Source: Deltaproteobacteria bacterium (lineage in GTDB: Bacteria > Desulfobacterota > BSN033 > UBA1163). Taken from it: DNA of 64,000 bases. The notes below the pieces were generated by a model. The model was not told where the DNA came from and did no database searches. It saw nothing but the letters and a program-made list of their open reading frames with translations. Location: contig JAGXTA010000071.1 in NCBI GenBank assembly GCA_018333535.1, positions 99,100-163,099 of the forward strand. Reading direction: 5' to 3'. Below, piece by piece: positions 785 to 50,353 of the stretch (positions within the stretch are counted from its first letter, which is position 1; every line of letters starts with the position of its first letter). A program made the translations under genes and the position numbers.

Positions 785-1600
785 TTAAGAGCTCTCCCAG
801 ACGATCTCTGACAACGGGAAGACAGGTCCATCTTTGCAGACCCGTCGATATGCCATTTCGGTGTCCCTCGTCTTGACTACACATCCCCAGCAGGCCCCGA
901 ATCCACAGCCCATACGAGCCTCAAGGGAAACCTGAATGATCCATTTCTTCGATTTGAGCGCCTTTGATAGCGACTTAACCATCCCCTCCGGTCCACAAAT
1001 ATAGACATGGTGGGGTCGACCCCTATCAAACCTTTCGATTTCAGATAGAAATAGGTCAACGACGGTCCCTTTTTTGCCCAAACTTCCATCCTCTGTGGCA
1101 ATAAAAACCTTTCCCTTTGGAAAGTCGTCCTCACATAAGATATCGTCTTTTGTCTTTCCGCCGATAAAAACATATATTTTTTCTGAACACAGCGCCTCTC
1201 CAAGGGCAGAGAGAGAGGCCATGCCCACTCCTCCCCCGATTAAAATAGTTGCCGCCGGAGAGGGAAGGGGGGGTAAGATAAACCCATTGCCCAGAGGACC
1301 TATCAGATTAACCTTTTGCCCTTCTTTGAAGGTTGACATCTTCTGGGTGCCTTTCCCCACCTTTTTATATAAAATGGAAAGCTGCCCCCTTTTCTCTTTA
1401 CTGGGATGCAGGGTCGAATAGCTCTTGTAAATGGAAAACGGTCGTCTCAGAAGAGGGTGGTGATTATCGGACGTGCTGATCATGACAAACTGCCCTGGTT
1501 TTGCTTCATTGGCAATAGCAGGACAGTCTATTTCAAGCAAGAAATAGATCGATTTAATTTTTCTGTTGTTGAGGACAATCCCGTCAGTTTGGAGAGCCAT
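785..1600 (-). CDS. pyrK: dihydroorotate dehydrogenase electron-transfer subunit (PyrK), FAD/NAD-binding with C-terminal 2Fe-2S motif
   Basis: 271 aa; C-terminal CGFGACWGC cysteine cluster and ferredoxin-reductase-like fold motifs; adjacent to pyrD. Confidence 0.85.
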   Translation of the reverse strand: MALQTDGIVLNNRKIKSIYFLLEIDCPAIANEAKPGQFVMISTSDNHHPLLRRPFSIYKSYSTLHPSKEKRGQLSILYKKVGKGTQKMSTFKEGQKVNLIGPLGNGFILPPLPSPAATILIGGGVGMASLSALGEALCSEKIYVFIGGKTKDDILCEDDFPKGKVFIATEDGSLGKKGTVVDLFLSEIERFDRGRPHHVYICGPEGMVKSLSKALKSKKWIIQVSLEARMGCGFGACWGCVVKTRDTEMAYRRVCKDGPVFPLSEIVWESS

Positions 1601-1621: not shown

Positions 1622-1740
1622 ACGTTTATCGTTGTCGAAGCTCGTATCGAGACTCGCTTGTCGAAACTGGAGGCTCGGATTTTATTCGAGTTTCGGGCCT
1701 CGTGCTTCTAATTTCGATACGAGCATCGTTACCGTAAACC
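1622..1740 (+). repeat. ~110-120 bp dispersed repeat with terminal inverted repeats (GCTCGTATCGA ... TCGATACGAGC), copy 1 of 4
   Basis: Near-identical copies at 16989-17107, 18929-19036 and 23349-23456, all in the same orientation. Spurious ORFs 1406..1711 and 16827..17078 read the same peptide across it. Confidence 0.8.
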
Positions 1741-1784
1741 TCTTTTTTACTTTAACCGATTAACCTTAAATGAAACGGGCCAAG

Positions 1785-2231
1785 TCATCTCTCCATAAGA
1801 AGCGCATCATATTTTCCCTGATAAAAATTCTTTCTTTTTCCTGCTTCCTGATAAGCAAAGGATTGATAGAGTCGGAAAGCTGGAATATTTTGAGGGTTGA
1901 CCTCAAGATAATATTTCTTCACTCCTTTTTGGCAACAAAAATCAATGTAGAATTCCATTAATCTTTTACCCAGCCCTTTTTTTTGATGCATGGGATCAAT
2001 GCAGATGTTGAGGAGCTCCGATTCTTCTCCGACATTCCTAAAGCAGATAAAACCGAGAGGGACATCTTCCTCCTCCCTGCATATAAGAAAGCAATGAGAA
2101 AAGGGGTGGGCAACCTCCCCAAGCAACATATCCCTCGACCAGGGATTTAATATAGAGGTGGCGGCAATGGGGACGACCTCATCCACATCCTCTATTTCCA
2201 TCTTTTTAATCCTTAACTTTTCTGATCCCAT
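1785..2231 (-). CDS. GNAT family N-acetyltransferase (RimI-like)
   Basis: 148 aa; acetyl-CoA binding motif QKKGLGKRLM and conserved GNAT core. Confidence 0.7.
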   Translation of the reverse strand: MGSEKLRIKKMEIEDVDEVVPIAATSILNPWSRDMLLGEVAHPFSHCFLICREEEDVPLGFICFRNVGEESELLNICIDPMHQKKGLGKRLMEFYIDFCCQKGVKKYYLEVNPQNIPAFRLYQSFAYQEAGKRKNFYQGKYDALLMER

Positions 2232-2379: not shown

Positions 2380-4284
2380 TTACTTAGGTTCAATATAACG
2401 CAGTAATTCCGACGCCGCTTTTTTAAGCTCCTCATCTTTTGCCTGGTTCAGGATGGTCAGATACGATCGCTTGGCCTCCTCATATTTCCCGTTTTTCCTC
2501 TGAAGATTCCCGATTTCGAGATGGGTCAAAAAGAACCACGGCGAGCTTTCCTGAAGATATCTCAGGGCCATTTCAAAACTTTTAAACGCCTTATCGTGCT
2601 TTCCCTGCTGGTAAAATATTTCCCCCAAACTAAAGTAAGTTCCGCCCAACCATTCGGGACGGCCCCCCTTGAGGATCATGGAATAATAGTGGATCGATTC
2701 TAAAATACTGTTTTGTTTAAAAAATAGTTTCCCCAACTGGAAAGCGGCATGGGTTGCGAGAGGATGATGCGGGAAATCTTCAACGACCTTCTTAAACGCT
2801 TTTTCAGCTTCCCAATTTTCCTTTAGCGATAAGTAAATGTTTCCCGTCTGGGTTAAGGCAAAGAGTTTCCAATGAGGATATTTATCTTTCTGAGCAAGAA
2901 GCCCGTATGCCTCAAAGGCCTGGTTCCAATTTCCGGATTGACTGAAGCATTCTCCCTTAATGAAGAGGCTTTCCTCAATATTGGGAGAGTTTGGAAACTC
3001 AAGCAATAAGATGTCCAAGTTGGTGATGGCCTCTCTGAATTTATTATCATAAAAATAGGCCTTTCCGATACGGTAAAGAGCCTTCTCCCTATAGTTCGTA
3101 TTCAGGACGTTAAAATAGTAGGGAAGGGAGTCCGTGATTCTGCCCTCTAAAAAGGCTATCTCACCATTGAGCCACTGGAGAACCGCCTTTTCATCATCAA
3201 ACGCGTTCAATTTTTGGAGCCTCTGAAATACTTTATGGGCTCCCGAAAGGTCGTTCTGTTGCATATGGTTCCAGAAAAGGGAAAGGAAAGCAATCCCCCA
3301 GAATGGATTTTCCTTTGATTTTGTAAAAATAAGATTGAGTTCTTTTATCGATGAGGGATGGTCGCTGCTCTGCAGGAATATCTCTCCCAATAAATAATGG
3401 GTGAATAGAAGGAGCGGAGAATCTTTGGCCTGGGGTTTAAAGGATTGGAGGGTTTCGATCGCCTCTTTAAAATGACCGATTCGGTAATCACAAAAGGCCA
3501 TTTTCCACAAGACTTCCGGGATGACGACATCCTCCTTGAAACGTTCATTGAACGTCCCGTAGATATTCTTCGCTTCATCGAACTTCCCTTGCTTCAAATA
3601 AGTTTCGCCTAACCAGAGCAAGGCGTATTTAAAAAAAGGGGGAGAAGCAGGTTTAAGATCGGACATCATCGTCTTAAAAAACCCCGCCGCCTCCTCGAAG
3701 TGGTTCTGCTTATAAGACAAGATTCCCAGCCAGAAATGAGAGGCTTGAATGAGCTCATTGTTTTTAGAGGCAAGGGATACTTTTTTAAAATGGGAGCCTG
3801 CCTGGGAGGTTCGATTCGATCCAACATCAATCAATCCGAGGTAATAATAAACCCGATCCATGCCTTCAAATTTGGGGTATCGATTGAGAATGGAGACGAG
3901 ATATCTTCTGGCTCCTTCGTTGTTTCCAAATCTGAGTTCAATATCGGCCAACCAGAAAAGGGTGTATTCCGTATAATCAAATGCTTTGTTCTCATTGATG
4001 ATCTTTAAAAAAATGGATCGGGATTCTTTCAGCTTTTCTTTGAGATAGAGCGTTTTTCCCAGAAGATAACAGATGTCATATAATTTCCCGTGTTCAGGAT
4101 AATCACGAAGGAATTGTGAAAATTGTTTTTCGGCAATATCATAAAAGCCATCATTGAAGGCACCGGTCCCAACCCAGATCAGCTTTTCATCTTCACCAAG
4201 AATCCTTGCGAAGGCATCCTGGCCAGAAAAAAACCCCATCGACCAAAAAACAAAAAGTGTATAAAAAATGATACGTTTGGCCAT
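2380..4284 (-). CDS. tetratricopeptide-repeat protein with N-terminal signal peptide
   Basis: 634 aa; hydrophobic N-terminus MAKRIIFYTLFVFWSMGFFSGQDAFA, then many TPR-like repeats (W/LG/Y/A/F/A/P pattern). Confidence 0.75.
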   Translation of the reverse strand: MAKRIIFYTLFVFWSMGFFSGQDAFARILGEDEKLIWVGTGAFNDGFYDIAEKQFSQFLRDYPEHGKLYDICYLLGKTLYLKEKLKESRSIFLKIINENKAFDYTEYTLFWLADIELRFGNNEGARRYLVSILNRYPKFEGMDRVYYYLGLIDVGSNRTSQAGSHFKKVSLASKNNELIQASHFWLGILSYKQNHFEEAAGFFKTMMSDLKPASPPFFKYALLWLGETYLKQGKFDEAKNIYGTFNERFKEDVVIPEVLWKMAFCDYRIGHFKEAIETLQSFKPQAKDSPLLLFTHYLLGEIFLQSSDHPSSIKELNLIFTKSKENPFWGIAFLSLFWNHMQQNDLSGAHKVFQRLQKLNAFDDEKAVLQWLNGEIAFLEGRITDSLPYYFNVLNTNYREKALYRIGKAYFYDNKFREAITNLDILLLEFPNSPNIEESLFIKGECFSQSGNWNQAFEAYGLLAQKDKYPHWKLFALTQTGNIYLSLKENWEAEKAFKKVVEDFPHHPLATHAAFQLGKLFFKQNSILESIHYYSMILKGGRPEWLGGTYFSLGEIFYQQGKHDKAFKSFEMALRYLQESSPWFFLTHLEIGNLQRKNGKYEEAKRSYLTILNQAKDEELKKAASELLRYIEPK

Positions 4285-10422: not shown

Positions 10423-11990
10423 ACTATCAAGATTTAATTCACTCTCCCATCCTCTCCCCCGGGGTTGCCAAACTGGTTCAGAAATGCGCCCTGAACAACG
10501 CCCCTGTTTTTATCCAGGGCGAACAGGGGACGGGAAAAGAGCTGATCGCAAAGATCATCCATCATACAGGGGATTGGAAATCCTCTCTTTTTTACAGGGT
10601 GGATTGTCAAATCCTTCATGAGAATACTCTCTTTGACCACCTCTCTCCCCTTTTTGAAAAGATCCTTTTCGGGATGACCCCGGCGACCTTCTTTTTAAAC
10701 GAGGTGGGACGCCTCGGCCGTAGGGATCAGTTGAAACTCCTGGAACTGGTCGAGGACGGCCTGCTCCAGAACGGAGTGGAGAAAAAAACCGTTAAAAACA
10801 TCCGCTTCATCTCCTCCTCCTCGGAGAACTTAGAAGAAAAGGTGGCGCAGGGAGCATTTTCAGGGGACCTCTATTTCCGCTTAAGAACCATGGCCATCCA
10901 TGTCCCGCCGCTGAGGGACCGTCCGAGAGAAATCGGCGCCATCGCTCAATATATTCTCGAAGAGAGTGTCAAGCAGTTGAAGCTTAAAAGAATGGGGATC
11001 TCGAATGACGTCCTCAGGTTGTTGGAGAGATACTGGTGGCCCGGGAACCTGAAGGAACTGGAGAGGGTCGTCACCCGTTGCGCCATTTTATCAGAAGGTG
11101 AAAAGATTATGGAAAAAGATCTCTCGATCGAGAACGGGATGGATAGAAATTCCTTTTTCTCTTTCGTTGAAAAGGCGGAGACGAGGCCGGCGGCGCCTCC
11201 CAAGAACGAACCCTCCCGTAACCATTCCAACGGACTCAATATCCCCGATGCCTCGTATTTTTTCCTTGAATTGGTCCATCGCATCAAAAATCCCCTGGTC
11301 TCCATCAAGACCTTCACTCAACTGCTGAGGGATAAATTTAATGATGCGGAATTCAGGGGCTATTTCTACAGGATCGTCACCGAGGATATCGAAAAGATTG
11401 ACGGCGTGCTCAATGGCCTCCTCAATTACATCCGGATCAATCACCCGGTCGAGAAGAAAGACACCATTCATTTCATCATCGAAGATGTCCTGAAAAAGCA
11501 TGGGACGCAGATTGAAAACAAGAGGATCAAGCTATTCAGGAAGTTTGAAAAAGACCTTCCTGAAACGATCCTCCATGAAGAGCAGTTGCGATACATTTTG
11601 ACTTCCCTGATTCAGTATGCCATTCCTGCGATCCCAGCCAGCGGAAGCATCGGTTTTTTAACGAAGTCCCTGGATGACCGCCCGGTTCGCGTGGAAAACG
11701 GAGAAGGCCAAACGCCTTCCTCAACAGAGAGGAGATACATCGAAATCATGATGGTTTTCACCGGCTACAAGAAACCCATCGATCCGCTGGATACGTTATT
11801 GGGAGCGCCTTTACTACGCGAGGAGGAATTGACCGATCTGGAGATACGGCTCATCAAAGAGATGATCGAGAGGAACCGGGGGATGATGAAATTCGAAGTC
11901 AATGAGAAGAAGCTCAGGACCCTGGTTTCCCTGAAATTCCCCGCGGAGAGAAGAAAGGTGATCACTTATCAGGCTACGAATTCATCATAA
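10419..11990 (+). CDS. fusion of a sigma-54-type AAA+ domain (degenerate GAFTGA) with a degenerate histidine-kinase-like domain
   Basis: 523 aa; Walker A GEQGTGKELIAKIIH, arginine-finger region GDLYFRLRTMAIHVPPLRDR, GAFTGA position reads MTPATF. No HTH. C-terminal half has HisKA-like VHRIKNPLVSIKTFTQLL but no N-box Asn and no DxGxG. Paralogous to 35387..36244. Start overlaps prsK-like stop. Confidence 0.7.
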   Translation: MNYQDLIHSPILSPGVAKLVQKCALNNAPVFIQGEQGTGKELIAKIIHHTGDWKSSLFYRVDCQILHENTLFDHLSPLFEKILFGMTPATFFLNEVGRLGRRDQLKLLELVEDGLLQNGVEKKTVKNIRFISSSSENLEEKVAQGAFSGDLYFRLRTMAIHVPPLRDRPREIGAIAQYILEESVKQLKLKRMGISNDVLRLLERYWWPGNLKELERVVTRCAILSEGEKIMEKDLSIENGMDRNSFFSFVEKAETRPAAPPKNEPSRNHSNGLNIPDASYFFLELVHRIKNPLVSIKTFTQLLRDKFNDAEFRGYFYRIVTEDIEKIDGVLNGLLNYIRINHPVEKKDTIHFIIEDVLKKHGTQIENKRIKLFRKFEKDLPETILHEEQLRYILTSLIQYAIPAIPASGSIGFLTKSLDDRPVRVENGEGQTPSSTERRYIEIMMVFTGYKKPIDPLDTLLGAPLLREEELTDLEIRLIKEMIERNRGMMKFEVNEKKLRTLVSLKFPAERRKVITYQATNSS

Positions 11991-11996
11991 GGAAGC

Positions 11997-12190
11997 CAGG
12001 AAGGCAGGAAAAATTCAAATTCTAAAACCCAAATTCTTTACCTTTTTTTTATTCATGGTTTCCTGGATTCCTAATAAGGAGTAACATAATAAGGAAGCCA
12101 AGAAGGCAGGAAAAATTCAAATTCTAAAACCCAAATTCTTTATTTTTTTTTTCATGGTTTCCTAAATTCCTAATGAAAAAATTCCTAATA
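11997..12190. repeat. tandem duplication (~95 bp x2) containing the dispersed AGGAAGCCAGGAA motif, upstream of the NtrC-type regulator
   Basis: Sequence aaggaagccaggaaggcaggaaaaattcaaattctaaaacccaaattcttta...catggtttcct..attcctaat occurs twice in tandem. The ttcctggcttcct motif recurs near 20470, 40965, 43855, 51080 and 54820. Confidence 0.7.
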
Positions 12191-12194
12191 AGGA

Positions 12195-13607
12195 GTGGCG
12201 ATGGTTGGAAAGGAAGCATTGAAAAGCATTCTGGTTGTCGATGACGAGGTGGGGGCCAGAGAATCCCTAAAAATGATTTTAAAGGGGGAGTACCAGGTCT
12301 TTTTGGCGAAAAACGCCGAAGAGGCCTTTCAACAGGTCGATGGCCATATCCCTGACGTAATCCTTCTTGATATCATCCTGCCGGATATGGATGGCCTGAG
12401 GATTCTGAAAAAGTTGAAGCAGACCCTTCCCGAACAGATCGTCATCATGATCACTGCCACCAAGACAGTGAAGACAGCCGTGGAAGCGATGAAACTCGGA
12501 GCTTATGACTACGTCACCAAGCCCTTCGATGTGGATGAGCTTCGCTTGATCATCAACCGGGCCCTTTCCACAAAGGCGCTGAAGGAGGAAAACCAGCGGC
12601 TCTGGATGGAGGTTGACCGGAATTTTGGCTTTGAAAATATCGTGGGAAAGAGCAAGGGAATGAAGGATATTTTTAAAGTGGTGAAGCAGGTGGCCGATAC
12701 CCGATCCACGGTTCTGATCATGGGAGAGAGCGGAACAGGGAAAGAACTCATCTCACGCGCCATCCACTACCATAGCCCGCGGAAAAATCATCCCTTCGTC
12801 ACCATCAACTGTGCGGCCATTCCGGAGACCCTGATCGAGAGCGAACTCTTCGGCCATGAAAAGGGGGCCTTCACCAATGCGATCGAGAAAAAATTGGGTC
12901 GTTTTGAGGCGGCCCATGAGGGGACTCTCTTTCTTGACGAGATTGGTGAATTGAGCCTGATGACCCAGGCGAAGATCCTCCGGTTTCTCGAAGAGAAGGA
13001 ACTCAACCGGGTGGGAGGTTCGAAGACGATTAAGGTCGATGTGAGGCTCATTACAGCGACCAATAAAGATTTGCCCCAGCTTGTCAAGACAGGACAGTTT
13101 CGAGAGGATCTCTACTACCGGATCAATGTGGTTCCCATCATCCTTCCCCCGTTGCGAGAGCGAAGAGAGGATATCCCCCTATTGATCAGCCATTTTACAA
13201 AGAAATTCAGCGAGGAGAACCAAAAACAGTTGAAGGGGGTCAGCAAAGAGGCCTTGGAATTGCTGCTGAACTACGAATGGCCCGGAAATGTCAGGGAACT
13301 GGAGAACCTGATCGAACGGGTGATTGCCCTCACCCACAATGAGTATATCCAGCCGGACGAATTGCCCCTTCCCATCATCAATCAATCCAAGGCGAATGGT
13401 TTGAAAGAATCGGTCTTAAGCGGCCAGATCTCCTTCTCGAGGGCGGAGGAAGAATTTGAGAAGGAAATCATTCTGGATGCCCTGAGAAAAGCCAATTTTA
13501 TTCAATCGCACGCCGCAGAGATTTTAGGGATCAGTCGAAGGATTTTGAAATATAAGATGGACAAATTGGGGATCCAGCAGCAGGACCGGATCAAGCAATA
13601 CTCCTAA
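12195..13607 (+). CDS. sigma-54-dependent response regulator (NtrC family: REC + AAA+ + Fis-type HTH); PrsR-like
   Basis: 470 aa; REC domain (VVDDEVGARESL...DIILPDMDG); Walker A GESGTGKELISRAIH; GAFTNA motif; FREDLYYRINVVPIILPPLRERRED; C-terminal HTH ILGISRRILKYKM. Confidence 0.85.
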   Translation: MAMVGKEALKSILVVDDEVGARESLKMILKGEYQVFLAKNAEEAFQQVDGHIPDVILLDIILPDMDGLRILKKLKQTLPEQIVIMITATKTVKTAVEAMKLGAYDYVTKPFDVDELRLIINRALSTKALKEENQRLWMEVDRNFGFENIVGKSKGMKDIFKVVKQVADTRSTVLIMGESGTGKELISRAIHYHSPRKNHPFVTINCAAIPETLIESELFGHEKGAFTNAIEKKLGRFEAAHEGTLFLDEIGELSLMTQAKILRFLEEKELNRVGGSKTIKVDVRLITATNKDLPQLVKTGQFREDLYYRINVVPIILPPLRERREDIPLLISHFTKKFSEENQKQLKGVSKEALELLLNYEWPGNVRELENLIERVIALTHNEYIQPDELPLPIINQSKANGLKESVLSGQISFSRAEEEFEKEIILDALRKANFIQSHAAEILGISRRILKYKMDKLGIQQQDRIKQYS

Positions 13608-16126: not shown

Positions 16127-16975
16127 ATGGATTTATTTTTGACAAGCCACGTCCTTTTTAATATCTCGATGGGAATTTATCTTCTCAGCTTCCTGGGCTA
16201 TCTCCTTTTTACAGCCTCACGGAGCAATCGACTGGGAACGGCTTCTACCTCTCTGCTGGTCATAGGGCTGGTCATTCACTCGGTTGGCCTGGTATTGCGC
16301 TGGCTGGAAACCCATCAGACAGGATATGGTTATGTTCCCCTTTCGAATATGTATGAATCTCTTGTCTTTTTCTCCTGGACGATTGTCCTGATCTACCTCA
16401 TCCTTGAATTCAAATACAAGCAAAAGATCATTGGCGTCTTTGTCACCCCCCTGGCCTTTTTGACAATCGCCATCCTCTCCATCATCCCAAGCGTCAGTCC
16501 CAAGATCACCCCGCTGATGCCAGCCCTCCAAAGCAACTGGTTGACCATTCATGTGACGACCTGTTTCTTCGGGTATGCCGCTTTTGCCGTCTCCTTCGGG
16601 ATCAGCATCCTTTACCTGATTCAAGATCGTAAAGGTGGACCGCAGGAGGGAATGGCAAAATGGCTGCCTGCTCTTCCCATTCTTGATGAGATTAACTACA
16701 AATCGATTGTGATCGGATTTCCGATGCTGAGCCTGGGCATCATCACCGGTGCGGCATGGGCGAATTATGCATGGGGAAGTTACTGGAGCTGGGATCCGAA
16801 AGAGACGTGGTCTTTGATCACCTGGTTTGTTTATGCGGCCTTCTTACATGCCCGTATCACACGGGACTGGAGGGGGAGAAAAGCAGCCATTCTATCCATC
16901 GTCGGGTTTGCGGCTGTCCTGTTTACCTACTTCGGGGTCAACTACCTCCTTTCCGGACTGCACAGCTACGCCTAA
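16127..16975 (+). CDS. ccsA: cytochrome c-type biogenesis protein CcsA/ResC family (heme-handling WWD domain)
   Basis: 282 aa polytopic membrane protein with Trp-rich WWD signature WGSYWSWDPKETWSLITW and conserved His residues. Confidence 0.8.
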   Translation: MDLFLTSHVLFNISMGIYLLSFLGYLLFTASRSNRLGTASTSLLVIGLVIHSVGLVLRWLETHQTGYGYVPLSNMYESLVFFSWTIVLIYLILEFKYKQKIIGVFVTPLAFLTIAILSIIPSVSPKITPLMPALQSNWLTIHVTTCFFGYAAFAVSFGISILYLIQDRKGGPQEGMAKWLPALPILDEINYKSIVIGFPMLSLGIITGAAWANYAWGSYWSWDPKETWSLITWFVYAAFLHARITRDWRGRKAAILSIVGFAAVLFTYFGVNYLLSGLHSYA

Positions 16976-16988
16976 ATCCTTAGAACAG

Positions 16989-17107
16989 ACGTTTGTCGTT
17001 GTCGAAGCTCGTATCGATGCTCGTTTGTCGAAACTGGAGGCTCGGATTATTATCGAGTTTCGAACTTCTTGCGTCTAACTTTGATACGAACATCGTCACC
17101 GCTAACC
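16989..17107 (+). repeat. TIR repeat family copy 2
   Basis: acgtttgtcgttgtcgaagctcgtatcgatgctcg...ctttgatacgaacatcgtcaccgctaacc; starts 14 bp after the ccsA stop, between convergent genes. Confidence 0.8.
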
Positions 17108-17125
17108 ATTAAAAATGCACCGTTT

Positions 17126-17551
17126 TCATAACTTATAGAGCTCATCGTCGAACATGTGGACCCAGTTCTTTTTCAGAACCTGAATCGCCTCCTCCATCTG
17201 ATCGACGCCCACGATCAACACCGTCTTTTCACCCCTGCCCAAACAGGTGTAGAGGTAATTGACATTGATTGAAACCTCTTTGAGCGGCTTTAAAACCGCA
17301 TTGAGACCACCCGGATGGTTGGGGGCTTCCACTGCGAGCACCTCGGTGATCTTAATCGAATAACCATGTGTCCTTAAGACATTGGCCGCCTTTTCAGGGT
17401 CGCTGGCGACAAACCGGATGGCGCTGACATCTGAGGCGTCAACCACGCTCACCGCTATGATATTGATCCCATTCTCTCCCAAATAATCGCTCATTTCAGA
17501 GAGCTTTCCGGGAACATTCTCAAGGCTTACGGAAATCTGTTTGACAGGCAT
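17126..17551 (-). CDS. ACT-domain protein (tandem ACT-like regulatory domains)
   Basis: 141 aa; two ~65-aa halves with ACT-like pattern (ISVSLENVPGKLSEM... / VLAVEAPNHPGGLNAVLKPL...). Adjacent to the oxidoreductase operon. Confidence 0.6.
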   Translation of the reverse strand: MPVKQISVSLENVPGKLSEMSDYLGENGINIIAVSVVDASDVSAIRFVASDPEKAANVLRTHGYSIKITEVLAVEAPNHPGGLNAVLKPLKEVSINVNYLYTCLGRGEKTVLIVGVDQMEEAIQVLKKNWVHMFDDELYKL

Positions 17552-17562
17552 AGCTTACTCCT

Positions 17563-18099
17563 TCACTTCAAATATTCGTATCCCAGCATTAAAGCTGATT
17601 TGTTCAGCTTGAAGACCGCAGGATTCTTGCCGCCGAAGGTATTTTTCAGAACCCGAATCATTGTTTCCGGAGACACCAGCCCGGATTTTTTGATGAAGGC
17701 TCCTACCATGATCACATTGGCGCCCCTATTTTCGGGAAGTTGTTTGGTCAAGTCATTGAGCGGGATCTCGTAGATCTCCAGATCTCCCCGGATGGGCCTG
17801 TCTTCGATCAGGCTTGAATTCAAAAAGATGGTCCCTCCGGATTGAACCTGATTCTGAAATCGGATTAAGGAGGGGTTATTCATCAACACCGCATATTCGG
17901 GTTCCGAGGCGACCGGAGAGGCAATCTCCTCTGAGGAGACCACCACCGTGCAGTTGGCTGTTCCTCCCCTGACCTCTGCTCCGTAAGAGGGCAAACAGGT
18001 CACATTCTTACCTTCGACCATCCCTGCGGTGGCAAGGAGGTATCCCATCATAATGACCCCCTGGCCGCCGAATCCTGAAAAAATAGTCTTAATGAGCAT
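17563..18099 (-). CDS. 2-oxoacid:ferredoxin oxidoreductase gamma subunit
   Basis: 178 aa; POR/KOR gamma-type (FSGFGGQGVIMMGYLLA...). Overlaps the beta-subunit gene by 11 nt. Confidence 0.8.
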   Translation of the reverse strand: MLIKTIFSGFGGQGVIMMGYLLATAGMVEGKNVTCLPSYGAEVRGGTANCTVVVSSEEIASPVASEPEYAVLMNNPSLIRFQNQVQSGGTIFLNSSLIEDRPIRGDLEIYEIPLNDLTKQLPENRGANVIMVGAFIKKSGLVSPETMIRVLKNTFGGKNPAVFKLNKSALMLGYEYLK

Positions 18100-18847
18100 C
18101 TTTCTTGTCTCCGGGGGTATCCTTCAGCACTCCGAGCGGGAAATGGCTCGCCATCACTTCATCGATCCATTTCGAGGCTTTTAAAGGATCCATTTTCCAG
18201 TTTGTCGGACAGGCGGACAGGACTTCGACAAGCGTGAACCCATATCCCTGTATCTGAAGACGAAATGCCTTTGCAATCGCCTTCTTTGTTTTCAAAATAT
18301 TGGCAGGGGTATTGACGGCCGTTCTCTCAATATAAGAACTGCCAGGGGCAATGGCAAGCATCTCGCTCAGATTGATAGGAAAACCTTCTACCTTTTCTTT
18401 TCTTCCGCGTGGCGAGGTGGTGGTGTTCTGTCCTAATATCGTGGTAGGCGCCATCTGGCCCCCGGTCATCCCGTAGACTCCGTTATTGACGAAGATGGTG
18501 GTAATGTTCTCCCCTCTGGCCGCCGCATGAATCGATTCTGCTGTTCCGATGGCGGCCATATCTCCATCTCCCTGGTAGGTGAAGACCACTCTATCCGGAA
18601 CGGCCCGTTTCAGTCCGGTCGCCACCGCAGCCGCCCTGCCATGGGACGCCTCGCCCATATCGATATCAAAATAGTTGTATGCGAGGACTGCGCACCCAGC
18701 CGGAGGGACGCCGATGATCTTCTCCTGAAGGTTCATCTCATCGATCACCTCTCCGATGAGCCGGTGGATGATGCTATGGCCACATCCGGGGCAGTAATGA
18801 AAAGGAGTTGTCTTCAGGGACTTCGGTCTGCTGAATATTTTTTTCAT
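18089..18847 (-). CDS. 2-oxoacid:ferredoxin oxidoreductase beta subunit (TPP-binding)
   Basis: 252 aa; N-terminal Cys motif CPGCGHSIIHRLI and TPP-binding GDGDMAAIG. Confidence 0.85.
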   Translation of the reverse strand: MKKIFSRPKSLKTTPFHYCPGCGHSIIHRLIGEVIDEMNLQEKIIGVPPAGCAVLAYNYFDIDMGEASHGRAAAVATGLKRAVPDRVVFTYQGDGDMAAIGTAESIHAAARGENITTIFVNNGVYGMTGGQMAPTTILGQNTTTSPRGRKEKVEGFPINLSEMLAIAPGSSYIERTAVNTPANILKTKKAIAKAFRLQIQGYGFTLVEVLSACPTNWKMDPLKASKWIDEVMASHFPLGVLKDTPGDKKDAH

Positions 18848-18928
18848 CGTAATATCTCAAGCCAAGTGTTTTTTCGATGGATTAGGTCGTCATAAGCTTT
18901 TTTTTAAAAGGTAACGGTAAAAAACTAG

Positions 18929-19036
18929 CGTTTGTGGTTGTCGAGGCTCGTATCGAGTCTCGTATATGGAGGCTTGATGCTCGATCTTCGTTTCCCGAGC
19001 TTCTTGCTTCGATACCAGCATCGTCACCGTAAACCC
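18929..19036 (+). repeat. TIR repeat family copy 3, between the alpha and beta subunit genes of the oxidoreductase operon
   Basis: gcgtttgtggttgtcgaggctcgtatcgagtctcg...cttcgataccagcatcgtcaccgtaaaccc; sits in the 265-bp gap between korA-like stop (19113) and korB-like start (18847). Confidence 0.8.
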
Positions 19037-19112
19037 ATTTTCTTTTTTTGCTACCCTTACCGATAACCGAAACGGGCTTCATAGCCGTAACCTTGACCGA
19101 TTGACTTTAAGT

Positions 19113-20168
19113 TTATCCCAGCCTCTTTTGGTAATACTGACTGGAGATGACCCGTGCAATTTCAAGAGGGGTGAGGATCACTCCTCCCGGCCTGCCATAG
19201 AAATGGACTTCTGCGTTTCCCTCGATGCCAAGTTTCACATCCTCCACCATCTGGCCCATATTCATCTCAAAGACAAAAAAATGTTTCACCTTTTTTGAAA
19301 AATCCTTGATCGCTTTAAAGGGAAAGGGCCAAAGAGTGATGGGCCGTAGAAGTCCGACCTTGACCCCTTCTTCTCGCAACCGTTTGATCGCCCCCTTGGC
19401 AATCCTTGCGGCAATGCCAAAAGCGATGACCATCATTTTTGCGTCGTCAGCAAAGTAGGTCTCCCATTTCACTTCTTCCCGGATGATCTTTTCATATTTC
19501 CTCATCAATTTCCAATTATGCTCTTCCTCTTTGATCGGGTCCAAAATGAGGGAACGGATGAACCGGCTTGGCCTTCCCTTGGCGCCAGTAAGCGCCCAGT
19601 CCTTAGCAGGCAATTTCTTCAAAGGAATTTCCTGTGGCAGTTCAACCGGCTCCATCATCTGGCCGAGCATGCCATCTCCCAGGATGAGGACAGGGGTGCG
19701 GTATTTATCTGCAAGATTAAACCCTTCATAAGTGAGGTCTGCCAGCTCCTGACAGGAGTTGGGGCCGAAGACGATGGTGCGGTAATCGCCATGCCCCCCT
19801 CCACGGGTGGCCTGAAAATAGTCGGACTGTGACGGAGCAATATTGCCGAGGCCCGGTCCTCCTCTCGACATATTGACAATCACAGCAGGCAATTCCAGAG
19901 CGCAAAGAAAGGAGATCCCTTCCTGTTTCAGGCTGATGCCCGGTCCCGAAGAAGAGGTCATCACCCTTCCCCCGGCCATGCTGGCTCCGATGACCATGTG
20001 GATCGATGCGATCTCGCTTTCGGCCTGAATAAAAACCCCTCCTTCCGCTTCCGGAAGTTTTTCCGACATATATTCGGGGATCTCATTCTGGGGCGTGATG
20101 GGATATCCGAAATAATAGCGGCACCCGGCACGAATAGCCGCCTCTCCCACCACATGATTTCCACGCAT
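19113..20168 (-). CDS. 2-oxoacid:ferredoxin oxidoreductase alpha subunit
   Basis: ORF track gives 19113..20276 (387 aa), which would overlap the delta subunit by 100 nt. Internal start MRGNHVVGEAAIRAGCRYYFGYPITPQNEI (352 aa) removes the overlap. The GYPITPxxEI motif is typical of the OFOR alpha subunit. Confidence 0.8.
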   Translation of the reverse strand: MRGNHVVGEAAIRAGCRYYFGYPITPQNEIPEYMSEKLPEAEGGVFIQAESEIASIHMVIGASMAGGRVMTSSSGPGISLKQEGISFLCALELPAVIVNMSRGGPGLGNIAPSQSDYFQATRGGGHGDYRTIVFGPNSCQELADLTYEGFNLADKYRTPVLILGDGMLGQMMEPVELPQEIPLKKLPAKDWALTGAKGRPSRFIRSLILDPIKEEEHNWKLMRKYEKIIREEVKWETYFADDAKMMVIAFGIAARIAKGAIKRLREEGVKVGLLRPITLWPFPFKAIKDFSKKVKHFFVFEMNMGQMVEDVKLGIEGNAEVHFYGRPGGVILTPLEIARVISSQYYQKRLG

Positions 20169-20175
20169 CAATACT

Positions 20176-20406
20176 TTAGGCACGGTGCACCTCGATGGCG
20201 ATTTCAGGGCACATGATAGCGCAAAGAGCGCATCCTGTGCATTTTCTGCCTTCTTTCTTGTGCTGGCTTTCCGCAAAAATGACGGGGGTATATCCCTTCT
20301 GGTTCAACCGATTGAAAGGTTCAATTAAATGATGAGGGCAGACAGAGATGCATAACCTGCAGTCTTTGCACAATTCAGAGTCAATTTCGATCATTCCTGA
20401 CGGCAA
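20176..20406 (-). CDS. 2-oxoacid:ferredoxin oxidoreductase delta subunit (2x[4Fe-4S] ferredoxin)
   Basis: 76 aa with two CxxCxxCxxxCP motifs (CKDCRLCISVCP and CTGCALCAIMCP). Confidence 0.8.
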   Translation of the reverse strand: MPSGMIEIDSELCKDCRLCISVCPHHLIEPFNRLNQKGYTPVIFAESQHKKEGRKCTGCALCAIMCPEIAIEVHRA

Positions 20407-20517
20407 ACTTTCCTCCTGATCGTAAGGAATCCAGGAACCCAGGAAAATTTATAAATTCTCTAATTAAATGATTTCCTGTCTTCATGGCTTCCTAATGATC
20501 TAAGTGAAGTTGAAATT

Positions 20518-21696: not shown

Positions 21697-22893
21697 ATGT
21701 CCGTACTATCGAATCGAGCAAGAAGTTTAAAACCATCTCCTACCCTTGCCATCAATGCTAAGGCAAAGGCGATGCAGGCCCAGGGCATCCAGGTCATCAG
21801 CTTTGGCGCTGGCGAACCAGACTTTGACACTCCTCAGAACATCAGGGCCGCAGCCATTAGGGCGATTGAAGAGGGTTTTACAAAATATACCCCTGTCGGC
21901 GGGACGGATGAGTTGAAAGATGCTGTTATCAAAAAATTTCAAAGAGACAACGGGCTAACCTACAAACGATCCGAAATCATTGCCTCCTGCGGCGGCAAGC
22001 ATTCCTTCTACAACCTGGCGCAGGCTATCTTTGATGCGGGGGATGAGGTGATCGTGCCCGCCCCTTACTGGGTCTCCTACCCTCCGATGGTCGCTCTGGC
22101 CGGAGCCACTCCTGTCATCGTTGAAACAAAGGAAGAGAATGGGTTCAAATTATCGATGGAGGACCTGAAAAAGGCGGTCACGCCAAAAACGAAAGCCTTG
22201 ATCATCAATAGTCCCTCCAATCCGACTGGAAGCGCTTATACGAAAGAAGACCTGGAACGGATTGCGGGGATGGCTCTTTCGCATCACTTTTTTGTCATCT
22301 CGGACGAAATTTATGAGAAGATCGTCTATGATGGCTTCAAGTTTATAAGCATGGCTTCTTTAAGTGAGGAAATCAGGAAGAGGACGATCATCGTTCACGG
22401 AGTGGCCAAGACCTATGCGATGACAGGATGGAGGATTGGTTATACGGCAGGGCCAGAAGAGATCATCTCTGCCATGAGCAATATTCAGAGCCAGAGCACC
22501 TCAAACCCCACCTCGATTGCCCAGAAGGCATCCGTAGAGGCGCTCGCAGGGTCCCAGGAAGAAGTTTTCAAAATGGTTTCGGCCTTTGAAGAGAGGCGTA
22601 ACTATATCATTGATCGCCTCAATAAGATGCCAGGAGTCTCCTGTTTTAAACCCATTGGCTCCTTCTATGTTTTCCCCAATTTCTCTTCTTATTACGGGAG
22701 ATCCTACCAGGGAAAGAAGATTTCCAACTCGACCGAGCTGGCTGATTACCTGCTCGATGTAGCCCGGGTAGCGGCTGTCCCCGGTGTTGAATTCGGAGCG
22801 GACCCCTTTGTGCGGCTATCTTATGCGACTTCTATGGAAGATATTAAGGAAGGGTTAAATCGGATCGAGGAAGCGCTCAAAAAGCTCTTTTAA
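21697..22893 (+). CDS. aspartate aminotransferase (class I PLP-dependent aminotransferase)
   Basis: 398 aa; PLP-lysine region [14 protein letters not shown] and N-terminal [30 protein letters not shown], typical of AspAT. Confidence 0.85.
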
Positions 22894-23341
22894 AGTAGTC
22901 CTCGAGGATCGAGCGGTGGTCGAAGGCGATCTTCTCAGGAAGATTCAATTCATTAAAGATTCCGATTTCCAAGGCATCGTCCATGGCCTTAGGCTTGCCC
23001 TTAGCTTTTGCTATGTAAACCGTTGAAATGCTATGGTGTCTTGGGTCTCTCTTGGGATCCGAATACGTATGAAGTTGTTTCTCAAGTTTCACATCTAAGT
23101 TTGTCTCCTCTTTCGCCTCCCTGATAGCGGCCCCTTCCAGAGATTCTCCATAGTCTACGAACCCTCCTGGGAGGGCCCATCCCTCAGGAGGATTTTTTCT
23201 TTTGATGAGAACAATGCCTTTCGCTTCGATTTCAATGATGATATCGACCGTAGGCAAAGGGTTCTGGTAGAGTTCGATCTCATTCTTACAAACCGGGCAT
23301 GTAATGGTTCGGCGGGCCATAGACTCCAAGCTTTCGAGCAA
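22877..23341 (-). CDS. NUDIX hydrolase with N-terminal zinc-ribbon
   Basis: 154 aa; Nudix box [26 protein letters not shown]; N-terminal CPVCKNE... Confidence 0.85.
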
Positions 23342-23348
23342 AAAAAGT

Positions 23349-23456
23349 TTTTCGTTGTCGAATCTCGTATCGATGCTCGATTATAGAAACTCGATACTCG
23401 TCGAGCTTCGCTTACCGGGCCTCTTGCTTCGATACGAGCATCGTCACCGATAGCCC
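23349..23456 (+). repeat. TIR repeat family copy 4
   Basis: tttttcgttgtcgaatctcgtatcgatgctcg...cttcgatacgagcatcgtcaccgatagccc; lies between the cinA stop and the NUDIX start. Confidence 0.8.
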
Positions 23457-23522
23457 TTTTTCTCTTTCTAACCTCTACCTTCTGACAAACCACCAAACGG
23501 GCTTCGTAACCCTCACCGTCAC

Positions 23523-24755
23523 CTATTTGATCAGATATTTTCTCAGCATGTCGAGAGCGATGATGGATGCTCTTTCGCGCACCATCCAGAGCTCGCCGCC
23601 CAAAGAATATTGCTGTCTCTCTATTTCCTCATTTGTAGAAATGGAATAGAAGGTTTCTACAAGGTATTCCTCCCTGCCCTGCTCCTCAACGGTTTTCGCA
23701 ACCATGGCAAGCCCAAGGGTCGCCTCAAACTCACCCTTTGCCCTTAAGGCAAGTTGGTCGCAAAGTGTCTGGGGATCTTTTTGAAGGGAGAGAATCTCAT
23801 CTTCTGAAATCTTTAAAAAACCGGATTGGGACCTGTTGCTTGGAAGAATCAATCCCTGGATGAAGGAAGACCTTCCCGTGCTGGTTAGCTTATTGGAGAG
23901 GATGCCCCCCGTAAATGTTTCAATTACCGATAATGTGAGGTTGAGCCTTTCCATCTCCTTCATAACATTTCCATGAAGGGTCTCCTTATCCACACCGTAG
24001 ATCAGAGATCCGAGGCGTCCCCTGATCTCTCCTTCCATTTTCTCAATGAGCGATGTTGCCTCAACAGGACTATCTGCTTTTGCCGTAATGCGGATCTTGA
24101 TATCTCCGATGGAGGCAAGGGTTCCCACAGAAGGATTCTGGTTTTGCTTCATCAGGTCTTTGATCTGAAGACCGATAGCGCTCTCTCCGAGGCCGCAGGC
24201 ACGGAGGACCTTATATTGAATGATCTCGCCCTGCAATTTGAATCGTCTTCTCAAATACGGAATCACCGTGGTTTCCATCAAATATTCCATCTCCAAGGGG
24301 ACACCCGGGACGGAGATGATGGCTCCATTGGGATATTCTACGATAAATCCGGGAGCAGTCCCCTTCGGGTTTTCAACAGGGATTCCACCTTCCGGTATGA
24401 AAGCCTGTTTCCGGTTGTTTTCTGCCATCCGGAAGCCCCGCCTTTTGAATAAGGCTTCGATCTGTTCCATGAGATGGGGTTGGTATTGAAGGGGACGGTT
24501 AAAGACTTCCGCAACAGCCTCACGGGTCAGGTCATCCTCGGTCGGACCGATGCCTCCTGTCGTGATGACGATGTTCGATCTGGCGATGGCTTCTCTGAGG
24601 ACTTCCTTAATCCGCCGAAGATCATCTCCGACCGTTGCGGTCCGAATCAACTCCACGCCCGAGGCGGCCAATTTTTTCGCAATTGAAGAGGTGTTTGTAT
24701 CTAAGATTTGACCTAAGAGGAGTTCTGATCCGATGGAGACGATTTCAGCATTCAT
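23523..24755 (-). CDS. cinA: competence/damage-inducible protein CinA (MoCF-binding domain + CinA C-terminal domain)
   Basis: 410 aa; N-terminal MNAEIVSIGSELLLGQILDTNTSSIAKKL...TTGGIGPTEDDLTREAVAE is the classic CinA N-domain. Confidence 0.9.
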   Translation of the reverse strand: MNAEIVSIGSELLLGQILDTNTSSIAKKLAASGVELIRTATVGDDLRRIKEVLREAIARSNIVITTGGIGPTEDDLTREAVAEVFNRPLQYQPHLMEQIEALFKRRGFRMAENNRKQAFIPEGGIPVENPKGTAPGFIVEYPNGAIISVPGVPLEMEYLMETTVIPYLRRRFKLQGEIIQYKVLRACGLGESAIGLQIKDLMKQNQNPSVGTLASIGDIKIRITAKADSPVEATSLIEKMEGEIRGRLGSLIYGVDKETLHGNVMKEMERLNLTLSVIETFTGGILSNKLTSTGRSSFIQGLILPSNRSQSGFLKISEDEILSLQKDPQTLCDQLALRAKGEFEATLGLAMVAKTVEEQGREEYLVETFYSISTNEEIERQQYSLGGELWMVRERASIIALDMLRKYLIK

Positions 24756-25267: not shown

Positions 25268-25403
25268 TTTTTATCCCTTCGTAAAAAAGAGGTTTTTTAA
25301 ATTTTAATTAATCGATATTTATTAAGCAATTAATATGCCAAATAATTTCAGAGCTTTCAATAAAGACTACAAGAGAATTCGATAAAACCTTGAATCCAAA
25401 AAA

Positions 25404-25452
25404 GCGCCCCTGGCCCGACTCGAACGGGCGGCACACGGATTAGGAATCCGTT
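25404..25452 (+). repeat. attL: 49-bp direct repeat identical to the 3' part of tRNA-Arg(CCT)
   Basis: gcgcccctggcccgactcgaacgggcggcacacggattaggaatccgtt at 25404-25452 matches 34810-34858, which is inside the tRNA gene on the minus strand. Confidence 0.85.
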
Positions 25453-25722: not shown

Positions 25723-26922
25723 ATGTCAAGACGGAAAGCGACGGAGTTTGAGGGCGTGAGATACCGGAGCCATCCGAGCCGGAAGCATGGGATCAAGAAT
25801 GATCAGTATTTCTCCATCCGTTACCGAGTGGACGGGAAGAGAGTCGAGGAGGGTTTGGGGTGGGCCAGCAAGGGGATGACGGCAAAGAAGGCAGCGCTTC
25901 AGCTTGCAGAGCTTCAAGAGGCGCACAGGAAGGGGACAGGTGAACCTGTAACCCTTCGAGAGAAACGGAAGATTGCCAGGGCAAAGAGAGGGAAGCAAGA
26001 GAAACAGGGGATCACATTCGGAGATTATTTCATCAATACTTTCATTCCACAGGCTGTCATTGAAAAACCGAGGGAAACGAAAGATAAAAAATCCCACTAT
26101 GAACACTGGATCAAGCCGGTAATGGGCGCCCTTCCCTTCCCGGAGATCGGCGTCCTTGAATTAGAGAGGGTCAAGACAAACATGTTGACCGCTGGTAAGG
26201 CTCCCCGAACGATTCAATATGTGTTTTCAACAATTCGGCGGGTATGGAATGATGCAAAATTGAAGGGGATCGTATCAGAGGAAAGTCCGACCCGGAAGAT
26301 CAAACTGGACCGCTTCGATAACAAGCGGGCCAGGTATTTCACCCATGATGAGGCGGAAAAATTCTTGACCGAACTGAAAAAGAGAAATGGTTCGTTATGG
26401 GATATGGCTCTCGTTTCTCTTCAATCGGGCCTTCGCTTCAGTGAAATTGCGAACCTGAGATACGGGGATATTGACCTAAAGAGAAATATCATTGGGATCC
26501 GGGACAGCAAGGGAGGTTTTTCAAGATATGCCCGAATGACCGAAGAGGTCAGGAATGTTTTTTCAAGAATGGAGCCCGGGGCCAGGGAAGCCCTCATTTT
26601 CCATGATGCCGATGGAATGAGGATCAAGAGGCCGTCGAAAATTTATATGAAGGTCATAGACGGCCTGGGATTCAATAACGGCGTAACAGACCGGCGACAA
26701 CGATTGACATATCACTCTTTGCGACATACATATGCAAGCTGGCTTGTAGATCGGGGAGTCGGGCTGTATGATGTTCAAAAACTTCTCGGTCATAAGAACA
26801 GCCAACTAACCGAGCGATACAGCCATTTATCAGATACCCGGCTGGACAATGACGTGAGGGAATTCGAAAAAGGAATCAAGCAGGCCCGGAGAGGTAAGGT
26901 CGTTGCAATAGGAAAGCGTTAA
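25723..26922 (+). CDS. tyrosine-type site-specific integrase (phage integrase family)
   Basis: 399 aa; C-terminal catalytic region LTYHSLRHTYASWLVDRGVGLYDVQKLLGHKNSQLTERYSHL (R..HxxR..Y). Confidence 0.9.
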   Translation: MSRRKATEFEGVRYRSHPSRKHGIKNDQYFSIRYRVDGKRVEEGLGWASKGMTAKKAALQLAELQEAHRKGTGEPVTLREKRKIARAKRGKQEKQGITFGDYFINTFIPQAVIEKPRETKDKKSHYEHWIKPVMGALPFPEIGVLELERVKTNMLTAGKAPRTIQYVFSTIRRVWNDAKLKGIVSEESPTRKIKLDRFDNKRARYFTHDEAEKFLTELKKRNGSLWDMALVSLQSGLRFSEIANLRYGDIDLKRNIIGIRDSKGGFSRYARMTEEVRNVFSRMEPGAREALIFHDADGMRIKRPSKIYMKVIDGLGFNNGVTDRRQRLTYHSLRHTYASWLVDRGVGLYDVQKLLGHKNSQLTERYSHLSDTRLDNDVREFEKGIKQARRGKVVAIGKR

Positions 26923-27015
26923 ATTGAAAATGGGGAAATAGGCGGGCCAGCCGACAAGCCGGGAACCCTACCCGGTTTTTCCCCATTCACTACAAGGGCA
27001 GCGAAGGGGGCTGAG

Positions 27016-34518: not shown

Positions 34519-34810
34519 CTCTCAGGCTGGATCGCAAAAGGGGGAGATGGATTAATGAGAATATACCGGAGGGGGGAGCTAAGGGAATTGGAGTGCGACT
34601 AAAAACAGTCACACTCTCTAATGCAGGCATAGGCAGGAACGAAAGCCCGATACTAAGGGGATTGGCCGAGTCGCAGTCCATACGGGCGGAGGAGGTGAAC
34701 CAAATGGGAGTCTATAAGACCGTTCATGGCGGGGGACAGATGGGGGATAAACCGTGTTGGGCCAGGAAAATAAAAAAGGCTTGAAACCCTCCAAGCCTTG
34801 ATAGTCTAAG

Positions 34811-34884
34811 CGCCCCTGGCCCGACTCGAACGGGCGGCACACGGATTAGGAATCCGTTGCTCTATCCACCTGAGCTACAGGGGC
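34811..34884 (-). tRNA. tRNA-Arg (anticodon CCT)
   Basis: rc reads GCCCCTGTAGCTCAGGTGGATAGAGCAACGGATTCCTAATCCGTGTGCCGCCCGTTCGAGTCGGGCCAGGGGCG. Cloverleaf with anticodon loop TTCCTAA and T-loop TTCGAGT; no encoded CCA. Confidence 0.85.
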
Positions 34885-35149
34885 ATCTCAATCCAACAAT
34901 ATGATTTTCACGCAATTTCGTCAAGACTATTTAAAATAAATTTTACTTCAAGGCAATCCTTTATGGAGGCTACGTCAACGTTTTCCTGTCGCGACGGCGG
35001 GCCAGCACGGCGGGCCTTGCGAAACGGGCGTCTTCACCCTAACCCTTGCCGAAGAATTATTTAGAACGAATTTTTGGATGGAAGTCTGAAGGGGTGAGAG
35101 CCGAAATATTTCCTGGAGGGGGAGGCTGCTCTTCTAAATCGTTAACCTT

Positions 35150-40583: not shown

Positions 40584-40589
40584 ATCAAG

Positions 40590-43829: not shown

Positions 43830-43867
43830 AACCCTCAAGCGACCTTATTCCTGTTTTCCTGGCTTCC

Positions 43868-50250: not shown

Positions 50251-50353
50251 ACCCATTTGCACTTTTAAAAAGTAAAAAGAATTTGATAATAAGGAAAGAA
50301 TTTTTAAGGCAGTGCCTTTCATTCATAACTCAAAACTTATAATTCAACATTCA

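Follow-up and report, generated by a model that had tools for sequence, protein, structure and literature searches.

Results

Four copies of a hairpin repeat in gene-end spacers

The window (the whole 64-kb stretch of DNA that was analysed) contains four copies of a short hairpin repeat on the plus strand, flanked by ordinary housekeeping genes. Copy c1 (1622-1740) lies between a GNAT acetyltransferase gene (1785-2231, minus strand) and a FAD/NAD oxidoreductase-type gene (785-1600, minus strand), and c2 (16989-17107) lies between the convergent genes for a cytochrome c assembly protein (16127-16975, plus strand) and an ACT-domain protein (17126-17551, minus strand). Copy c3 (18929-19035) is located within a 2-oxoacid:ferredoxin oxidoreductase operon, between the genes for the alpha subunit (19113-20276, minus strand) and the beta subunit (18089-18847, minus strand). 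Copy c4 (23346-23455) separates cinA (23523-24755, minus strand) from a NUDIX hydrolase gene (22877-23341, minus strand). The first-pass annotation had placed the repeats in gene-end spacers, which proved correct for all four: the genes on both sides of c1, c3 and c4 run on the minus strand, and those on either side of c2 converge.

The limits given are the envelopes from a search with a profile built from relatives of the element, which returned no fifth copy from the whole 64-kb window. The four copies scored 91-96 bits on the plus strand versus 36-43 bits on the minus strand; the element, though palindrome-like, is therefore asymmetric and one orientation is common to all four. The 5' motif, GTTGTCGARGCTCGTATCGA, was found at 1631, 16998, 18937 and 23354 with no more than one mismatch and on the plus strand only (0.01 occurrences expected by chance in the window), and the 3' motif at 1714-1734, 17081-17101, 19009-19029 and 23429-23449 (none expected by chance). 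With both end motifs occurring four times on the plus strand against a chance expectation of 0.00-0.01, the four same-orientation copies that had been reported are real.

The 11-bp terminal inverted repeat described in the first-pass annotation corresponds to a perfect core (GCTCGTATCGA/TCGATACGAGC). Imperfect complementarity reaches beyond it to approximately 21-27 bp (aCGTTTgTCGTTGTCGAAGCTCGTATCGA / TCGATACGAGCATCGTCACCGTAAAC), with three conserved mismatches; in c1 the arms occupy 1631-1650 and 1714-1734. The aligned length across the four copies is approximately 107-119 nt. A coding role was considered, as more than one frame is open and c1 and c2 differ by apparently synonymous changes. 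The copies vary in length (84, 92, 94, 99-103 and 139) by steps that are not multiples of three, and the 3' arm does not keep to one frame; the element is therefore non-coding. Terminal inverted repeats, small size and absence of coding capacity are thus all present in the element.

Runs of A and T border c1, c3 and c4. A simple terminator scan flagged none of the four window copies and the A- and T-runs belong to the arms of outer hairpins rather than to the element, so a terminator reading was rejected.

Outer hairpin arms and nesting

Copy c3 is enclosed by an outer hairpin, the right arm of which (19036-19102, plus strand) consists of a T-run followed by ...CCGATAACCGAAACGGGCTTCATAGCCGTAACC; its partner, GGTAACGGTAAAAAACTAGC, is truncated (18910-18929). 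An outer-arm segment also adjoins c4 (23456-23527, plus strand; a T-rich stretch and then AAACGGGCTTCGTAACCCTCACCGTCACC), and another, the most diverged of the outer arms, adjoins c1 (1741-1790, plus strand; a T-run and then ...ATGAAACGGGCCAAGTCATC). The design of the outer arms around c1, c3, c4 and many relatives is GGTTACGGTTACGAAGCCCGTTTCG ... CGAAACGGGCTTCGTAACCGTAACC. A hairpin of the outer-arm type also stands alone, with no inner element, at 36610-36751 (plus strand; GGTAAAGGCTAACC...AAACTGGCTTCCTAACCATAGCC), with a small extra hairpin, CCGCCTTCCGGTAGGCAGG, inserted within it, and a partial, weaker copy of the outer-arm hairpin is located at 35012-35054.

A further level of nesting was observed within the outer arm: a small hairpin (GCCTGCCTGCCGGTAGGCAGG) recurs as an insertion at a fixed position, with AAAC on one side and GGGCTTC on the other. 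It was seen in the window at 36633-36651 and in the downstream flanks of six related loci (L049, L047, L048, L006, L056 and L035).

Folding and covariation

Compared with shuffled sequences, c1, c3 and c4 fold far better on either strand (z of -3.5 to -5.0). The fold of c2 is no better than that of shuffled sequence (z of -0.5), owing to mutations in its arms. The first-pass annotation had also raised the possibility of a structured RNA module, and had proposed a check for covariation. This was examined with a hand-specified structure of 27 pairs, comprising the outer stem and a 6-bp inner stem, in 55 distinct copies. In this alignment 77.8% of cells were paired, compared with 77.7% ± 0.3 when the partners were shuffled, and 78.5% of cells paired in the terminal helix alone; pairing therefore follows from the separate conservation of each arm. 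The covariation score across the 55 copies (0.088) was close to that of the shuffles (0.084) and was reached by 73 of 500 of them, so the aligned copies gave no compensatory support for the stem. Mismatches predominated at three positions, with U·C in 51 of the 55 copies, U·U in 46 and A·A in 24. G·U pairs were as frequent as their opposite-strand (A-C) equivalents (63 versus 67), which argues against RNA-level selection on either strand. RNAalifold did not recover the outer stem from the alignment, returning only a trivial 3-bp helix, and a search of the entire window against Rfam at the gathering threshold matched none of the copies; around c1 there was no match even at E<=10. With no covariation and no strand-specific excess of G·U pairs, a selected RNA fold is unsupported, and the proposal of a structured RNA module was not borne out.

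The repeat family beyond the window

An exact-pattern scan with GTTGTCGANNCTCGTATCGA (18 fixed bases) of one genome per species (2 x 596 Gb) returned at least 110 loci, against a chance expectation that we calculate to be approximately 17 matches. About a dozen of the matches have no 3' arm and come from high-GC proteobacteria and actinomycetes; these are chance matches, and the others are true copies. With many further copies in other genomes and metagenomes, the repeats form an element family rather than a chance local duplication, as had been suspected. Several copies per metagenome-assembled genome (MAG) were found in JBDRTM01 (Planctomycetota, more than 20 contigs), CAZLIO01 (Pirellulales, many) and VGRY01 ('Deltaproteobacteria', many). 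The labels of carrier MAGs include Thermodesulfobacteriota/Syntrophaceae, Planctomycetota (Pirellulales, Phycisphaerae and Sedimentisphaerales), Thermodesulfovibrionia, Omnitrophota, Aegiribacteria and WOR-3, a breadth of phyla that binning errors may exaggerate, with the main groups each backed by many contigs. Among 2.9 million viral contigs there was only one match, and carriage by phages was rejected on this basis. No description of dispersed cassettes of the kind set out below was found in the literature searched, which was itself incomplete, so an earlier description is possible.

From all sources 158 complete copies were assembled, of which 154 were distinct. Across the family the unit is 85-180 bp long with a variable core of approximately 50 nt. 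Two subtypes were distinguished: subtype 1, to which the window copies belong, mostly has approximately 93 nt between the motifs, and subtype 2, from planctomycetes, spans 85-165 nt and has a core with extra GC-rich hairpin modules. These modules occur in either orientation (L008 versus L029 and L041), and so are independent nested insertions.

Placement in the genome loci was not random with respect to the neighbouring genes. By counts that rest on crude ORF calls, the strand that carries the ORF in full-length relatives (described below) matched the genes in 40 copies in co-directional spacers and was opposite to them in 16 (p=0.002), and 13 copies were in convergent spacers versus two in divergent ones (p=0.007).

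Gene-bearing relatives encode a four-helix-bundle protein

In one relative (L030, VGRY01000038.1) the two arms of the element are approximately 590 nt apart and surround an ORF of 129 amino acids, on the strand opposite to the one on which the first-pass annotation read the repeats; at c1 this corresponds to the minus strand. The ORF matched Pfam PF05635, '23S rRNA-intervening sequence protein' (1.1e-18), and NCBIfam TIGR02436, 'four helix bundle protein' (7e-16), and had weak matches to NF033474, the Avd protein of diversity-generating retroelements (DGRs; E of 0.007), and to PDB 2GSC (0.0034). The arms also enclose the ORF in L111 and L146. To our knowledge the PF05635/TIGR02436 family is very large, with a function known only for the role of Avd in diversity-generating retroelements.

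Forms intermediate between these loci and the short repeats were also found. A 233-nt copy from a Planctomycetota MAG (L001) retains codons 1-22 of the ORF, 86% identical to those of L030, fused to the last 10 codons, and in four further loci (L034, L082, L074 and L079) what is left of the 5' leader and the 3' end is shorter. Together these copies form a graded series from the gene-bearing cassette to the miniature. No four-helix-bundle ORF was found in the 64-kb window by local search, so the link between the window copies and the protein gene rests on relatives.

A reciprocal search with the protein as the query returned 80 metagenome loci (64-100% identity), and the element profile matched 53 of them. 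Where there was enough flanking sequence, arms of the element were present on both sides of 37 of the 38 ORFs at least 70% identical to that of L030, versus one of the 29 ORFs that were 60-70% identical. The latter are flanked by significant inverted repeats of another type (z mostly 4-12), CGGTTGCGGTTGCGAGGCTCGTTTCG ... CGAAACGAGCGGCGCAACCGTAACCG. The type of arm tracks the subfamily of the protein. The outer-arm design seen at c3 is that of the arms around this second subfamily of four-helix-bundle genes; since the arm type of the more distant ORFs matches the outer arms, the window copies are miniatures of one arm type in the loop of gene-less remnants of the second type, with c1, c3 and c4 inside such remnants.

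Strong purifying selection acts on the ORF (median dN/dS of 0.067 over 206 pairs). The layouts of gene-bearing loci differ: in 11, about a third, the ORF is inside one split element (e.g., L146), in 13 it is between two complete hairpins and 14 are mixed. Given these differences, either layout may be ancestral, and the gene may be a passenger that entered pre-existing hairpins. Tandem arrays are common, with two to five complete short copies approximately 20 nt apart, all in the orientation of the ORF (L114 and L120). No transposase or reverse transcriptase recurred beside the gene in the 80 loci, the neighbours being diverse host genes, and none of 20 gene-bearing loci had an Rfam rRNA match. 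In two loci the four-helix-bundle cassette lies immediately 3' of a known RNA feature, a cobalamin riboswitch in L175 (1113-1340) and a tRNA gene in L161 (1336-1424).

Insertion and decay of copies

The spacer between the alpha and beta subunit genes is 265 nt long in the window genome, versus 4-31 nt in four relatives (L193-L196) whose beta subunits are 91-94% identical. The composite at c3, made up of the outer arms and the inner element, is approximately 235 nt long and lies in the stretch from the stop codon of the alpha gene to the conserved ribosome-binding region. On this comparison c3 is evidently an insertion, its site being empty in the four close relatives. Both many copies and presence/absence variation at an orthologous site are therefore seen for the element. 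A target-site duplication was visible neither at c1-c4 nor in the comparison of filled and empty sites at c3, the latter being too diverged for base-exact junctions.

The arms of c2 have decayed: its opposite strand reads GTTCGTATCAA, compared with GCTCGTATCGA in the orthologous copy of L193. The spacer that contains c2 (16976-17125 in the window and approximately 3220-3540 in relatives) carries the element in L191 and L193, with intact arms in L193. In L194 it holds an unrelated insertion of approximately 300 nt, in L195 a hairpin of TGGAAnA heptamers and in L196 an outer-arm hairpin with a partial element in reverse orientation. As this spacer holds different hairpin repeats in each relative, gene-end spacers are hot spots for the replacement of one hairpin family by another.

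Other features of the window

A separate hairpin repeat family, with units of GGAAGCCAGGAAGGCAGGAAA / TTTCCTG..CCTGGCTTCC, has copies at 11983-12194, 20418-20503, 40964-40993, 43849-43878, 51073-51102, 54810-54839 and 57546-57575. Those at 11983-12194 are directly upstream of a sigma-54 response-regulator gene (12195-13607), homologues of which occur in seven loci that carry the studied element (L030, L111, L096, L071, L118, L121 and L149); in L030 and L111 the four-helix-bundle cassette or the studied element is directly upstream of the homologue. Tandem heptamers at 39516-39719 (TTCATTG TTTATTG TTCATAG TTTATAG TTCATCG) resemble the inverted repeats (GTTCATC GTTCATT GTCCATC GTTTATC) around a second four-helix-bundle gene in L030 (1428-1841), and could represent what remains, without its gene, of a third type of cassette.

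The 3' half of a tRNA gene (34811-34884) is duplicated exactly over 51 nt (25402-25452 and 34808-34858) at a distance of approximately 9.4 kb. Just inside the duplicate are a phage-type integrase gene (25723-26922; PF00589) and an int-alpA RNA (26931-26998; Rfam RF02996), and the region between the duplicates looks like an island of approximately 9.4 kb integrated at the tRNA gene. Group II intron RNA domains were matched at 49798-49937 and 50163-50252 (Rfam models for D1-D4 and domain V/VI). The 226 nt between them leave no room there for the usual reverse-transcriptase ORF, and the intron at 49798-50252 may be ORF-less or degenerate. Three longer pairs of direct repeats (40582-40818 and 58328-58564; 43605-43820 and 53096-53311; 51217-51361 and 60406-60550) are 145-237 nt long and 76-95% identical; they fall in the 40-60 kb part of the window, which suggests duplicated or paralogous segments.

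Discussion

Probable origin and possible effects of the repeats

The four repeats are probably non-coding, MITE-like miniatures of a hairpin cassette whose full form carries a PF05635 gene. The family, its link with the protein gene, insertion polymorphism, decay of copies and a lack of RNA covariation were all observed here, and an account can be built on them. The full cassette comprises two complementary arms of approximately 25-30 nt, with short-period TCGA/CTCG units, around a gene for a four-helix-bundle protein that is distantly Avd-like. The gene-less forms would derive from the gene-bearing ones through loss of the interior, via intermediates that keep the first 22 and last 10 codons. 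Cassettes and miniatures insert and persist in gene-end and intra-operon spacers, mostly pointing with the flanking genes, sometimes forming tandem arrays and often becoming nested in the loop of another hairpin repeat of like design.

If the element is transcribed with its host operon, the imperfect stem of 21-27 bp would be a substrate for RNase III; such processing would be expected from the layout that the element shares with the Coxiella and Leptospira intervening sequences. A copy such as c3 would then cause the alpha-beta transcript to be split or to terminate, and would not function as a sequence-specific RNA. By this analogy, the likeliest molecular consequence would be that transcripts are cleaved by RNase III, or end, between cistrons such as alpha and beta, to which we give slightly less than even odds.

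The four-helix-bundle protein would be the most likely trans-acting factor to recognise the arms and promote spread of the element, a role that we assign to it as speculation. That each arm type goes with a protein subfamily is explained equally well by protein-driven spread and by simple co-inheritance. Neither a target-site duplication nor a transposase or reverse transcriptase was found that would account for mobility. In a bolder reading, which we regard as doubtful, hairpin cassettes of the intervening-sequence type would constitute a distinct and ancient class of mobile element present in several phyla. The Avd-like protein, encoded by their only gene, would recognise its own arms and promote or direct their insertion at hairpins near gene ends, possibly aided by a reverse transcriptase or recombinase of the host. 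Intervening sequences of rRNA would represent the special case of a landing in rRNA, and the ~107–119-bp window repeats would be non-autonomous riders.

Alternative explanations

The repeats might instead be cis-acting RNAs maintained by selection (for instance to terminate transcription in both directions, to stabilise the mRNA or to be cut by RNase III) rather than selfish DNA. Several observations are in keeping with such a role: the fold is stable on both strands (z of about -3.5 to -5), the copies favour gene 3' ends and operon interiors with an orientation bias and avoid divergent promoter spacers, A- and T-runs lie beside c1, c3 and c4, and the same spacer holds different hairpin repeats in close relatives, as if they were interchangeable modules. 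However, the copies show no covariation, no strand asymmetry of G-U versus A-C (63 versus 67) and no RNAalifold consensus stem. Close relatives lack c3 and have only 4-31 nt in its place, c2 has lost its fold, the terminator scan flagged no copy and the A- and T-runs are part of the outer arms. We therefore consider a selected RNA unlikely. Chance, or a purely local duplication with no family behind it, would agree with there being only four copies in the window; its probability is negligible, and it is already refuted by the motif expectation of 0.00-0.01 in the window and by hundreds of related copies elsewhere.

Two kinds of recombination-based element also merit consideration. A classical MITE, formed by deletion within an insertion sequence of the DDE-transposase type and mobilised in trans through its terminal inverted repeats, would account for inverted repeats of approximately 25 bp on an intergenic unit of approximately 100 bp with many copies, and for the absence of c3 from the same site in close relatives. 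Yet no transposase was found between or next to matching arms in 190 loci of up to approximately 8 kb each, where the sole recurrent gene was the four-helix-bundle ORF and the other clusters of flanking ORFs were ordinary host genes. Nor was a target-site duplication visible at the four window copies or in the comparison of filled and empty sites at c3, and the arms have fixed differences and three conserved mismatches; this origin is quite unlikely. Integron attC-type sites, imperfect palindromes that are folded as single strands for a tyrosine recombinase, with the small ORF as the cassette, would explain an imperfect palindrome with conserved mismatches, the one orientation common to the copies and the tandem arrays with a small promoter-less ORF between hairpins (L114 and L120). 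The core sites of attC have the form 5'-RYYYAAC...GTTRRRY-3', whereas the ends of the element, 5'-GTTT...AAAC-3', have the opposite polarity. No integrase adjoins the copies, the sole integrase in the window (25723-26922) belongs to the tRNA-flanked island, and the copies are dispersed among housekeeping operons and do not form a cassette array, all of which makes an attC-type origin very unlikely.

Implications

The layout of the rRNA intervening sequence, a terminal stem and a PF05635 ORF, is found here in a family whose many copies are spread over ordinary spacers of operons. What was a single-locus curiosity becomes a comparative system with filled and empty sites, deletion derivatives, nesting and arm types that track protein subfamilies, and the family provides a comparative handle on the origin of intervening sequences and on the function of PF05635 proteins. 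For annotation, such hairpins account for unusually long spacers in conserved operons (here that of the oxidoreductase alpha and beta subunits), and hairpins of this kind should be taken neither for riboswitches nor for sRNAs.

Comparison with known systems

Bacterial genomes contain several MITE-like intergenic repeats, among them Correia/NEMIS of Neisseria, ERIC of enterobacteria, RUP and BOX. Those repeats are imperfect palindromes of approximately 100-150 bp in transcribed spacers, with internal indel variants and insertion polymorphism between strains, and the present family resembles them in these respects. It differs in having a four-helix-bundle protein rather than a transposase, no visible target duplication and a distribution across phyla rather than within one genus or family. 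The first-pass annotation had proposed a MITE-like or REP-like element. The MITE-like part of this proposal holds with respect to the family, the insertion at c3 and the internal-deletion derivatives, with the difference from a classical MITE that the longer relatives encode a PF05635 protein instead of a transposase and that no target-site duplication was visible.

The REP-like part applies only loosely. REP units are 20-40 bp long, with loops of 4-5 nt and an unpaired GTAG or CGTC tag (PMC3733652). Like REP and BIME sequences, the copies are extragenic palindromes at gene 3' ends, in gene-end spacers, where they form clusters and mosaics, and several families occur per genome. The unit of 85-180 bp is too long for a REP, being approximately three to five times longer, and has a variable core of some 50 nt, and no RAYT gene was seen.

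Avd is an accessory protein of diversity-generating retroelements (PDB 4DWL), and PF05635 proteins resemble it (PMC10053308). The protein encoded by the gene-bearing relatives is related to Avd in fold and family, as the weak NF033474 match indicates; unlike in Avd systems, no reverse transcriptase, template repeat or variable repeat was found beside the ORF in the 80 loci.

Of the systems considered, the intervening sequences of 23S rRNA genes share the overall layout. For Salmonella, short intervening sequences without an ORF have been reported. In Coxiella burnetii the terminal stem is 28 bp long and contains one mismatch and a bulge, the loop holds an S23p/PF05635 ORF, reported to be decaying, and there are heptamer repeats; the intervening sequences of Coxiella and Leptospira are excised by RNase III (PMC4990558). 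Their origin and mobility have been open questions since about 1990, and Ralph and McClelland (cited in PMC4990558) had already raised the protein as a possible spread factor of the elements in rRNA. The present family likewise has complementary termini that form a stem of approximately 25-28 bp with few mismatches or a bulge, a PF05635 ORF in the loop of long forms (here in relatives only) alongside short ORF-less forms, and short-period direct repeats near the ORF (heptamers in Coxiella, units of 6-7 nt here). Each is viewed as selfish DNA of unknown origin that lacks a transposase. The two differ in location, since the intervening sequences occupy helix 25 or 45 of the 23S rRNA gene whereas the window copies lie between protein-coding genes and none of the 20 gene-bearing loci is in rRNA. 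They differ also in that the present family is multi-copy within genomes, forms tandem arrays, is nested and spans several phyla, and in that its ORF, unlike that of Coxiella, is under strong purifying selection. The element thus resembles both the rRNA intervening sequence and the MITE, yet lacks a defining feature of each, and the rRNA intervening sequences may themselves belong to a larger dispersed family.
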